This document shows, one piece after another, positions 363 through 1,388 of a stretch of 12,133 nt of DNA. The translations under genes and the position numbers were made by a program. Where the stretch lies: the IMG/VR virus record IMGVR_UViG_2703718828_000006. One strand, given 5' to 3'. Source of the stretch: a virus (Duplodnaviria; Heunggongvirae; Uroviricota; Caudoviricetes). Under the pieces are notes generated by a model. It was not told where the DNA came from. It saw nothing but the letters and a program-made list of their open reading frames with translations, and made no database searches. The first letter of the stretch is position 1. Each line of letters begins with the position of its first letter.

Positions 363-1388
363 ATGGATAATCAGGACAAAATTTCTGACCGTGAGGTTAC
401 TGCAACGGCAGAGCCGCAGTCCTCTGCAGAATGTTTCACCTTTGGCGATCCCATTCCAGTACTGGACCGGCGCGAACTGCTGGACTATGTGGAATGCGTG
501 CAAATGGATCGCTGGTATGAGCCGCCGGTGAGTTTTGCAGGGTTGGCACGTACCTACCGCGCAGCCGTACATCACAGTTCACCAATTGCCGTTAAGCGCG
601 ACATTCTCAGCAGTACCTATATCCCGCATCGCCTGCTCAGCCAGCAGTCTTTCACCCGTTTCGTTCAGGATTATCTGGTGTTTGGTAATGCCTATCTGGA
701 AAAGCGCACTAACCGGCTGGGTGGTGTCCTCTCACTGGAGCCAGCGCTGGCAAAGTATACCCGGCGCGGTGTTGACCTAGAATCCTACTGGTTTGTGAAC
801 TATAGCCTGACGACGCAGCCTTATGAGTTCACCAGAGGCAATATTTTTCACCTGATGGAGCCGGATATTAACCAGGAGATTTACGGGCTGCCCGGTTATC
901 TCTCTGCCATTCCGTCAACCTTGCTCAACGAGTCCGCAACGCTGTTCCGCCGGAAGTATTACATCAACGGTAGTCATGCGGGTTTCATCATGTACATGAC
1001 AGACGCGGCGCAGAATCAGGAGGACGTGAACAACATCCGCAAGGCAATGAAAAGTGCCAAAGGGCCGGGAAACTTTCGCAATCTTTTTATGTACTCGCCC
1101 AATGGTAAAAAGGACGGCATCCAGATCATCCCGCTGTCAGAGGTGGCGGCAAAAGATGAGTTTATGAATATCAAGAATGTGAGTCGTGATGACATGATGG
1201 CAGCGCACCGCGTGCCACCGCAGATGATGGGTATCATACCTAACAACACTGGTGGTTTTGGCGATGTGGAAAAAGCAAGTCGTGTGTTTGTTCGTAATGA
1301 ATTACTCCCCCTCCAAAAACGTTGCGAAGAGTTGAATGAATGGCTAAATGAAGAAGTAATAAAATTTAGGCCATACTTATTAGATTAA
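363..1388 (+). CDS. Phage portal-like protein (tentative; P2 GpQ / PBSX-type portal family), 341 aa
   Basis: Long ORF in GC-typical DNA. The track ORF starts at a GTG at 309; the first in-frame ATG is 363 (MDNQDKISDRE...) behind a purine-rich stretch. C-terminal region has HRVPPQMMGI, reminiscent of the conserved GVPP-type motif I recall in HK97/P2-family portals. Identification is from memory, not a search. Confidence 0.55.
   Translation: MDNQDKISDREVTATAEPQSSAECFTFGDPIPVLDRRELLDYVECVQMDRWYEPPVSFAGLARTYRAAVHHSSPIAVKRDILSSTYIPHRLLSQQSFTRFVQDYLVFGNAYLEKRTNRLGGVLSLEPALAKYTRRGVDLESYWFVNYSLTTQPYEFTRGNIFHLMEPDINQEIYGLPGYLSAIPSTLLNESATLFRRKYYINGSHAGFIMYMTDAAQNQEDVNNIRKAMKSAKGPGNFRNLFMYSPNGKKDGIQIIPLSEVAAKDEFMNIKNVSRDDMMAAHRVPPQMMGIIPNNTGGFGDVEKASRVFVRNELLPLQKRCEELNEWLNEEVIKFRPYLLD

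Follow-up and report, generated by a model that had tools for sequence, protein, structure and literature searches.

The question raised by this locus is whether a P4-like satellite, the textbook element that brings no helper-type virion protein and reshapes the helper capsid from outside, can keep a portal gene of its own. The locus lies in a 12,133-nucleotide stretch of a caudoviricete virus record (IMGVR_UViG_2703718828_000006), referred to below in its whole length as the window. An earlier sequence-only reading had tentatively taken the 341-residue product of its open reading frame (ORF) at 363..1388 for a portal protein encoded inside a P4-like satellite. We find that this ORF is a P2-type portal gene (a homolog of gpQ), that it lies within the element alongside a homolog of the P4 scaffold gene sid, and that its core is under strong purifying selection.

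Identity of the portal gene and its place in the element

The ORF at 363..1388 is intact and its product matches three portal families: the NCBIfam equivalog model TIGR01540 portal_PBSX (4.3e-101, 338 bits, cutoff 166), PHROG 68 portal (5.9e-171) and Pfam PF04860 Phage_portal (6.1e-18, 65.5 bits, cutoff 39.1). It is 63% identical to P2 gpQ, a protein that undergoes proteolytic cleavage at maturation (PMC7552001), over 319 amino acids (aa; residues 23-341 against 24-340, E 2e-156). From residue ~20 onward it has 86-92% identity with the portals that P2-like phages of Klebsiella, Escherichia, Salmonella and Yersinia encode, and past that residue it reaches 92-93% identity with the closest P2-like phage portals. 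A phmmer search aligned residues 85-328 with a solved chain named 'Portal protein' (8cez/8fql, E 6.5e-5), and an AlphaFold2 model, built from a shallow alignment of 43 sequences in which the homologs were all ~80% identical, had a mean predicted local distance difference test score (pLDDT) of 38.8, too low to be of use. The start is placed at ATG 363 and not at GTG 309, which heads the longest ORF, because a 1-nt indel between 309 and 363 in relatives breaks the frame from 309. The portal-like assignment made from the letters alone is borne out, and the gene is, judged by these matches, one for a full-length P2/PBSX-type portal (gpQ).

The gene also lies, as had been proposed, in an att-bounded P4-like element. 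The attL core TGGTGCGAAGGCCGGA is a copy, with a 1-nt indel, of the 3' end of the tRNA-Leu(CAA) gene at 11929-11946, and window positions 36-131 align with the P4 attP core and arm region (P4 4078-4174), giving an element that spans ~36 to 11946, or ~11.9 kb from attL to attR. In E. coli relatives integrated at tRNA-Arg, a perfect 16-nt att repeat is found 540 bp outside the portal. By these borders the portal is inside a P4-like satellite that occupies two integration sites, tRNA-Leu and tRNA-Arg. Reading leftward from the tRNA, the integrase is followed by a conserved 212-aa gene, an Icd-like ORF, a DUF5375 gene and the alpha-type primase, and then by a sid homolog, a 90-aa Ogr/Delta gene, a cos-like region, a 558-aa cargo gene and the portal; AlpA is annotated in close relatives. 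Of the features by which P4-like satellites are recognised, the element has a tRNA-linked integrase and att sites bounding 10-12 kb, an alpha-type primase-helicase, a Sid homolog and a single-domain Delta/Ogr activator. In Pfam scans of the larger ORFs of the window the portal was the only structural gene found, no gpN-directed query having been made, and none of the set carried by capsid-forming phage-inducible chromosomal islands (cf-PICIs; own major capsid protein, protease, connectors and terminase) was present among the window ORFs.

The sequence-only reading had seen no obvious Sid homolog, had named the gene at 3683..4444 psu, and had proposed the portal as a hijacking strategy different from that of Sid. 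We find instead that the 253-aa product of this gene aligns end to end with P4 Sid (25% identity, E 6e-14), whereas its alignment with Psu is weaker and confined to the C-terminal half. It matches PHROG 6165 (242 positions) at 7.8e-95 and PHROG 6366 (190 positions) at 6.9e-10, which we took as the Sid and Psu families by length only, PHROGs giving both one Psu-like description. The sid promoter has the layout of P4 Psid, with dyads 38 bp apart and the proximal dyad 34-35 nt from the ATG. A separate psu gene was not found in the window; in close relatives sid and delta are separated by a psu gene of 537 bp, and published surveys accept P4-like elements without one core gene, as Type B. Since the 253-aa gene is a Sid homolog, the portal would add to Sid-type size redirection and not substitute for it. 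We also considered whether loss of psu is tied to gain of the portal as a strict rule, which is ruled out by a relative with neither psu nor portal (L007).

Descent, constraint and control of the satellite portals

In a neighbour-joining tree, constructed without support values, all the satellite portals group in a single clade, which falls within the P2-like portals of enterobacteria. Six substitutions (A24C, S26T, D59A, A96S, T141S and Q146N) are fixed in the satellites and absent from the 31 closest phage portals, and position 59 is aspartate in 63 of the 74 phage portals compared. We estimated the ratio of nonsynonymous to synonymous substitution rates (dN/dS) over codons 23-290 by pairwise Nei-Gojobori comparison, using our own script. 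In 14 of the 15 satellite pairs there were 26.5-57.5 synonymous against 1-8 nonsynonymous changes (dN/dS 0.008-0.045), and the near-identical pair L001/L015 had 9 and 3 respectively (dN/dS 0.097), a pattern that argues for strong purifying selection on the core of the satellite portal. Codons 1-22 are weakly constrained, with a ratio of nonsynonymous to synonymous differences (pN/pS) of 0.48 against 0.065 for the rest, which fits a disordered segment; in P2, some 26 N-terminal residues are reportedly taken off gpQ at maturation.

The 3' end of the gene has a different history. Over residues 21-290 the satellite portals are at least ~87% identical in nucleotide sequence, and from residue ~291 to the end sliding-window comparison gives identities of 0.51-0.86 between satellites with different cargo and 0.94-1.0 between those with the same cargo. 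Each satellite portal 3' end is, moreover, closer to some phage Q than to other satellites. From this mosaic, which tracks the cargo, we infer that cargo was replaced through crossovers located in the 3' end of Q, for which other Q genes served as donors.

The sid-delta module of the window is 99.9% identical to that of E. coli EC1515, whose portal has only 89.7% nucleotide identity; the portal core of the EC1515 satellite type (L002, strain Evo1) differs from that of the window by a synonymous divergence (dS) of ~0.4. The near-identity of one module beside the divergence of the other indicates that the modules have different histories and reassort.

Upstream of the portal, conservation among seven satellite copies, which carry two unrelated att/int modules, begins abruptly at ~246, at the distal of two TGT-N12-ACA dyads, and continues into the ORF. 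Over the 114 bp before the ATG the mean pairwise distance is 0.073, against a pS of 0.277 in the coding core, so that synonymous sites diverge about four times as much as the portal promoter. The half-sites of both dyads are invariant in six satellites that differ elsewhere, and no variation across satellites is seen in the block AAATATCGTTGT or in the 21 nt made up of the distal dyad and its flanks. TGT-N12-ACA occurs six times in the whole window against 2.8 expected, and four of these matches are the two before the portal (Table 1) and the two before sid (4479-4496 and 4517-4534); by our own calculation, with ~0.03 dyads expected per 120 bp, two within one such stretch have a P of ~4e-4. 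The same motif is found between genes P and O in the closest helper-type phages. The promoter and N-terminal segment (236-440) had no match in 50,697 phage records, 78 P2-like prophage loci, P2 or P4.

The sequence-only reading had placed the portal under Delta-type late control, behind the dyad that precedes the satellite late operon. The shared dyad type holds good, and with it that half of the proposal; the activator does not, being a 90-aa single-domain Ogr-like protein and not the 166-aa two-domain P4 Delta. The rule that a dyad is centred 55.5 bp from the start was taken from the annotated P2 PO/PP site and start sites. On this basis we tentatively prefer an arrangement in which the distal dyad would lie at -55, with transcription starting near 314 and the second dyad across the start site, over a Psid-like one, in which a proximal dyad at -18 would need the -10 hexamer CACACC, a poor one. 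The distance from the proximal dyad to the ATG (37 nt) nonetheless resembles that of the proximal Psid dyad. A search for a sigma-70 -35/-10 pair upstream of the portal found none, as expected of an activator-dependent promoter. Ogr/Delta control of the portal is thus a well-motivated prediction.

Origin, distribution and possible roles of the portal module

The portal, cargo and cos-like region together resemble one end of a P2-like genome. Both cos-like blocks match sequence that P2-like prophages carry 0.2-3.4 kb downstream of Q, with order and orientation unchanged, which makes portal-cargo-cos collinear with the end of a P2-like genome that lies next to cos. On the minus strand, GGCGGGCGGGGCTGTGCAC stands at the position of the P2 cohesive end; the P2/P4 cohesive-end 19-mer is absent from the window even when 3 mismatches are allowed. 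The cargo slot has counterparts in P2-like elements as well. A 55%-identical, full-length homolog of the 558-aa cargo (frameshifted in the record) is convergent with, and adjoins, Q in the P2-like phage-plasmid CP019275.1, and a 67.5%-identical homolog of a 120-aa cargo (orf120) directly follows Q in a Rosenbergiella prophage. The slot held one of only three types of cargo in the copies seen: the 558-aa gene, the 120-aa gene or a DUF4062 gene. The 558-aa cargo has its own sigma-70-like promoter at 3159-3132 and matched no Pfam, PHROG or PADLOC family, giving only sub-threshold matches to the Avs1c N-terminus and DitB; we regard it as a candidate uncharacterised defence gene. The junction of Q with satellite-specific sequence falls near codon 20, and the collinearity of portal, cargo and cos points, as far as alignment can tell, to capture from a helper.

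We identified the promoter and N-terminal segment in 13 of 5426 complete E. coli genomes. The sid-delta module, at a coverage of at least 80%, was present in 170 of the same genomes, 13 of them at least 99% identical to the window; these two sets of 13 were counted separately, and E. coli EC1515 belongs to both. Portal-less related satellites (L006, L007) are much commoner. Among 80 species-representative portal loci the satellite form occurs in two, from Pseudocitrobacter vendiensis and Pantoea stewartii. The other 78 have a full-length or near-full-length gpP directly upstream (70 loci), a truncated remnant of it (6) or none (2), and most of the gpP-bearing loci also carry gpO upstream; as gpP is upstream in all but two, these are P2-like prophages or remnants. 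No gpP or gpO homolog was found near the satellite portal copies, a feature of context and not of protein family. A protein database clustered at 90% merges satellite with phage portals, and the four representatives examined were of the phage type.

Beyond these genomes, the exact portal protein of the window is indexed in 219 blocks of an assembly collection. Scans of IMG/VR and of metagenomes gave three further loci each, five of the six with the same architecture and the sixth (L100) too short. The order portal-cargo-delta-sid-alpha is common to the copies in E. coli, Pantoea stewartii, Pseudocitrobacter vendiensis, IMG/VR and metagenomes; portal and sid occur together, at odds with the earlier idea of a portal in place of Sid.

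Several side observations concern the portals of individual loci. In ten P2-like prophages (L017, L018, L060, L067, L069, L077, L078, L085, L088 and L089) P does not overlap Q and ends ~750 bp before it (at ~9200-10000 of each locus), implying that something has been inserted between the two genes; two of the ten, L017 and L018, rank with the phage loci most closely related to the satellite portal. In Pantoea stewartii (L015, 10001-11125) the satellite portal ORF runs to 374 aa, past the stop of its relatives, and is either a C-terminal extension or the product of a lost stop codon. The Pantoea stewartii genome additionally holds a P2-like prophage with a 92%-identical portal (L018).

We propose, as a reading of function from sequence, that a P4-like satellite lineage captured the cos-proximal end of a P2-like helper (cos, cargo slot and Q) and kept Q working, the helper's upstream terminase gene and first ~20 codons being replaced by the satellite N-terminal segment and a ~115-bp two-dyad regulatory region. 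Helper Ogr or the satellite's 90-aa Ogr/Delta protein would turn on late transcription, and the replicating, multicopy satellite would make helper-compatible portal together with Sid, its subunits joining the helper gpQ assembly pathway and so entering the portal vertex of procapsids. That the gene is functional and expressed late via Ogr/Delta, with a product interchangeable with helper gpQ and built into procapsids, is a proposition on which we are evenly divided. The likeliest benefit would be supply, in the form of extra portal for small capsids. A Sid-directed T=4 shell contains 235 gpN, against 415 for T=7, which allows ~1.8 times as many shells per capsid-protein pool, and every shell needs twelve portal subunits (a dodecamer) to be packageable; more shells, each requiring its dodecamer, make supply the most plausible advantage. 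In a second role, Q and cos flank the cargo slot with sequence homologous to that of P2-like phages, and the aligned 3' ends of Q demonstrate its use as a homologous flank for cargo exchange with such phages.

Several points weigh against a working satellite portal. P4 works without a portal of its own, and the benefit of having one cannot, for this reason, be large or general. The lineage is rare, in the E. coli genomes as in the species-representative loci, and the supply argument draws on literature stoichiometry and not on a portal shown to be limiting here. The promoter geometry is non-canonical, the portal dyads being 58 bp apart and not 38 as in Psid; the proximal dyad is impossible at -55, since the start would fall 9 nt inside the ORF, and only the distal one fits. 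The low dN/dS could, in part, have been imported by gene conversion from phage copies, although this is unlikely for codons 23-290 because of the monophyly and the fixed substitutions. Rarity is equally what might be seen if Q had merely come with the cargo and persisted as a landing pad for recombination, its protein useless to the satellite. The collinearity of portal, cargo and cos with P2-like phages, the cargo homologs in the matching slot of P2-like elements and the co-variation of the mosaic 3' end with cargo all agree with such a passenger. A homology arm, however, needs no ORF, yet the core has changed in the informative pairs almost wholly at synonymous sites (26.5-57.5 changes against 1-8) and every portal copy is intact. 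Gene P has, furthermore, been replaced by a dedicated region with two invariant dyads that evolves about four times more slowly than synonymous sites, and the module costs ~1.1 kb of ~11.9 kb, or ~9% of a size-limited genome. We consider it unlikely that Q is a passenger or recombination anchor only.

The portal might alternatively have been turned to the satellite's private use, the variant protein seeding Sid-caged small procapsids, favouring the packaging of satellite DNA or poisoning non-cognate P2-like portal rings. Codons 1-22 occur only in the satellites and in none of the phage portals examined, the six substitutions including D59A are fixed in the satellites, and the shared dyad motif suggests co-regulation with sid, all of which such a role could explain. 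The N-terminal segment is, however, weakly constrained (pN/pS as given above) and would lie among the ~26 residues reportedly taken off P2 gpQ at maturation, five of the six fixed changes are conservative (A/C, S/T, A/S, T/S and Q/N), and the remainder of the protein is nearly that of the closest phage portals. We therefore find an interfering or privatised portal decidedly improbable, and are just as sceptical of a privatised assembly nucleus formed through the N-terminal propeptide and the fixed substitutions, notably D59A. The sequence-only reading had gone further in having the portal redirect helper assembly; nothing in the sequence suggests that it does so alone, given its 92-93% identity to phage portals and six fixed substitutions. 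Finally, the gene could be part of the remains of an adjacent P2-like prophage, and there are indeed degraded prophages of this kind in which Q is orphaned and P truncated (L050, L052, L059, L081 and L084). This is refuted, to the point that we give it almost no credence, by an attL outside the gene at two integration sites, by the lack of any trace of gene P upstream and by a module that travels with satellites of different integrases in several genera.

Relation to known systems and further features of the element

A helper-compatible portal, kept and expressed by the satellite, would set this lineage apart from the systems to which it is most closely related. With P4 it shares a homologous integrase and att, an alpha-type primase with a DUF5375 neighbour, an Icd-like domain, AlpA in close relatives, a full-length Sid homolog, an Ogr/Delta activator, a Psid-type promoter with dyads 38 bp apart and a cos-like region that adjoins a variable cargo hotspot. 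P4, however, has no virion structural protein of helper origin, whereas the present element has gpQ; here alpha is followed, on its own strand, by sid and delta, the hotspot abuts attL and not int, psu is missing, and the activator is a single domain of 90 aa as against the 166-aa Delta. The portal itself is of the P2-like type, and Q is oriented as in P2-like phages, with only a cargo slot between it and the cos-like region. P2 has Q as the downstream member of a P-Q operon, overlapping the stop codon of P, whereas in the satellite P is absent and Q has its own two-dyad promoter region and a new N-terminal ~20 residues. cf-PICIs are likewise satellites that encode their own portal; they carry, in contrast, a whole head module (capsid, protease, portal, connectors, TerS and TerL) and take only tails from the helper, while here the portal is the only helper-type structural gene found and size redirection is of the Sid type. 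We found no mention of a portal in P4-like satellites in satellite survey papers, P2/P4 hotspot papers or full-text literature searches.

The variable gene between portal and cos also sits in a cos-adjacent hotspot, like those described for defence genes at P2 A-Q and P4 psu-int (Rousset et al. 2022, PMC9122126; NAR 2026, PMC13586616). In the published description each kind of flank is confined to its own element, P2-type to P2 and P4-type to P4, whereas here a P4-type flank (delta-cos) is combined with a P2-type one (Q). Although P2 phages and P4 satellites have cells, induction and packaging in common, almost no exchange was seen between their defence repertoires, a result called puzzling and partly ascribed to missing homology (PMC13586616). 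The present lineage carries the homology said to be missing, in its Q and cos flanks, and bears cargo-tracking crossover scars in Q, and would thus be a natural system for the trade of anti-phage genes between helper and satellite. The retention of a helper-derived portal with its own predicted late promoter, under purifying selection, suggests that the supply or the identity of the portal can matter to a capsid pirate. Were the portal in fact privatised, capsid piracy would have a second layer that acts at the portal vertex, and the same gene would be a built-in bridge by which helper and satellite pass genes to each other.

Table 1. Coordinates of the features discussed, in window positions
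Feature	Position	Strand	Remarks
attL core TGGTGCGAAGGCCGGA	36..51		repeats the tRNA-Leu 3' end at attR
Regulatory region of the portal module	246..362	+	conserved in an alignment of 7 satellites
Distal TGT-N12-ACA dyad (TGTATCGAATTTGACACA)	250..267		candidate Ogr/Delta site; centre at -55.5 for a start near 314
Candidate -10 hexamer TATCGT (inferred)	302..307	+	inside the invariant block AAATATCGTTGT
Proximal TGT-N12-ACA dyad (TGTGCTGTTCATTACACA)	308..325		ends 37 nt before the ATG; half-sites conserved
Portal gene (gpQ homolog)	363..1388	+	341 aa; codons 1-22 satellite-specific, 23-290 satellite-lineage core, ~291-341 mosaic
GC-rich hairpin	1395..1410	both	separates portal and cargo genes, which converge on it; terminator-like on both strands
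Variable cargo gene, 558 aa, no family	1416..3092	-	hotspot between portal and cos
cos-like region	3190..3332	-	blocks 3190-3237 and 3299-3332 common to P2-like prophages
Ogr/Delta-type late activator, 90 aa, single zinc-finger domain	3411..3683	-	PF04606, 1.1e-16; PHROG 603
Sid homolog (external capsid-size scaffold), 253 aa	3683..4444	-	full-length alignment to P4 Sid
Psid-type late promoter	4479..4534		pair of TGT-N12-ACA dyads with 38-bp spacing; 34 nt from the end of the proximal dyad to the sid ATG
Alpha-type primase-helicase, 890 aa	4845..7517	-	Zn_Ribbon_Prim, Toprim_3 and DUF927 domains
P4-type tyrosine integrase	10501..11832	-	69% nucleotide identity to P4 int over 1255 bp
tRNA-Leu(CAA)	11928..12012	-	3' end holds the attR core, 11929-11946

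We additionally noted features of the element outside the portal module. The Icd-like ORF at 8562..9299 on the minus strand is 245 aa when called mechanically, and its similarity to the Icd-like family is confined to the final 47 residues; the gene annotated there in E. coli relatives has 58 aa, and the product called in one assembly has 227. A 10-bp unit (CACAGTATTA / CACTGTATTA) is repeated four times, head to tail, at 9722-9761, in the interval that separates the 212-aa gene from the alpA-side genes; the copies resemble in form the 10-bp 'ori type 2' repeats annotated at 9176-9205 of P4, and may represent an iteron or part of an origin. From the end of the primase gene to the sid promoter, the intervening sequence has two direct copies of the 21-mer GGCGTTCCACCTGTTCCACCT, at 4726-4746 and 4791-4811 (65 bp apart); this repeat is kept in an E. 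coli relative (L094, 16211-16231 and 16276-16296), and may be a replication cis-element or an element bound by a regulator. Directly outside attL, some genomes have a second arm-type integrase gene (L008, 8202-9473; L001, 12569-13834), indicating that islands are stacked in tandem at the same tRNA-Leu site.

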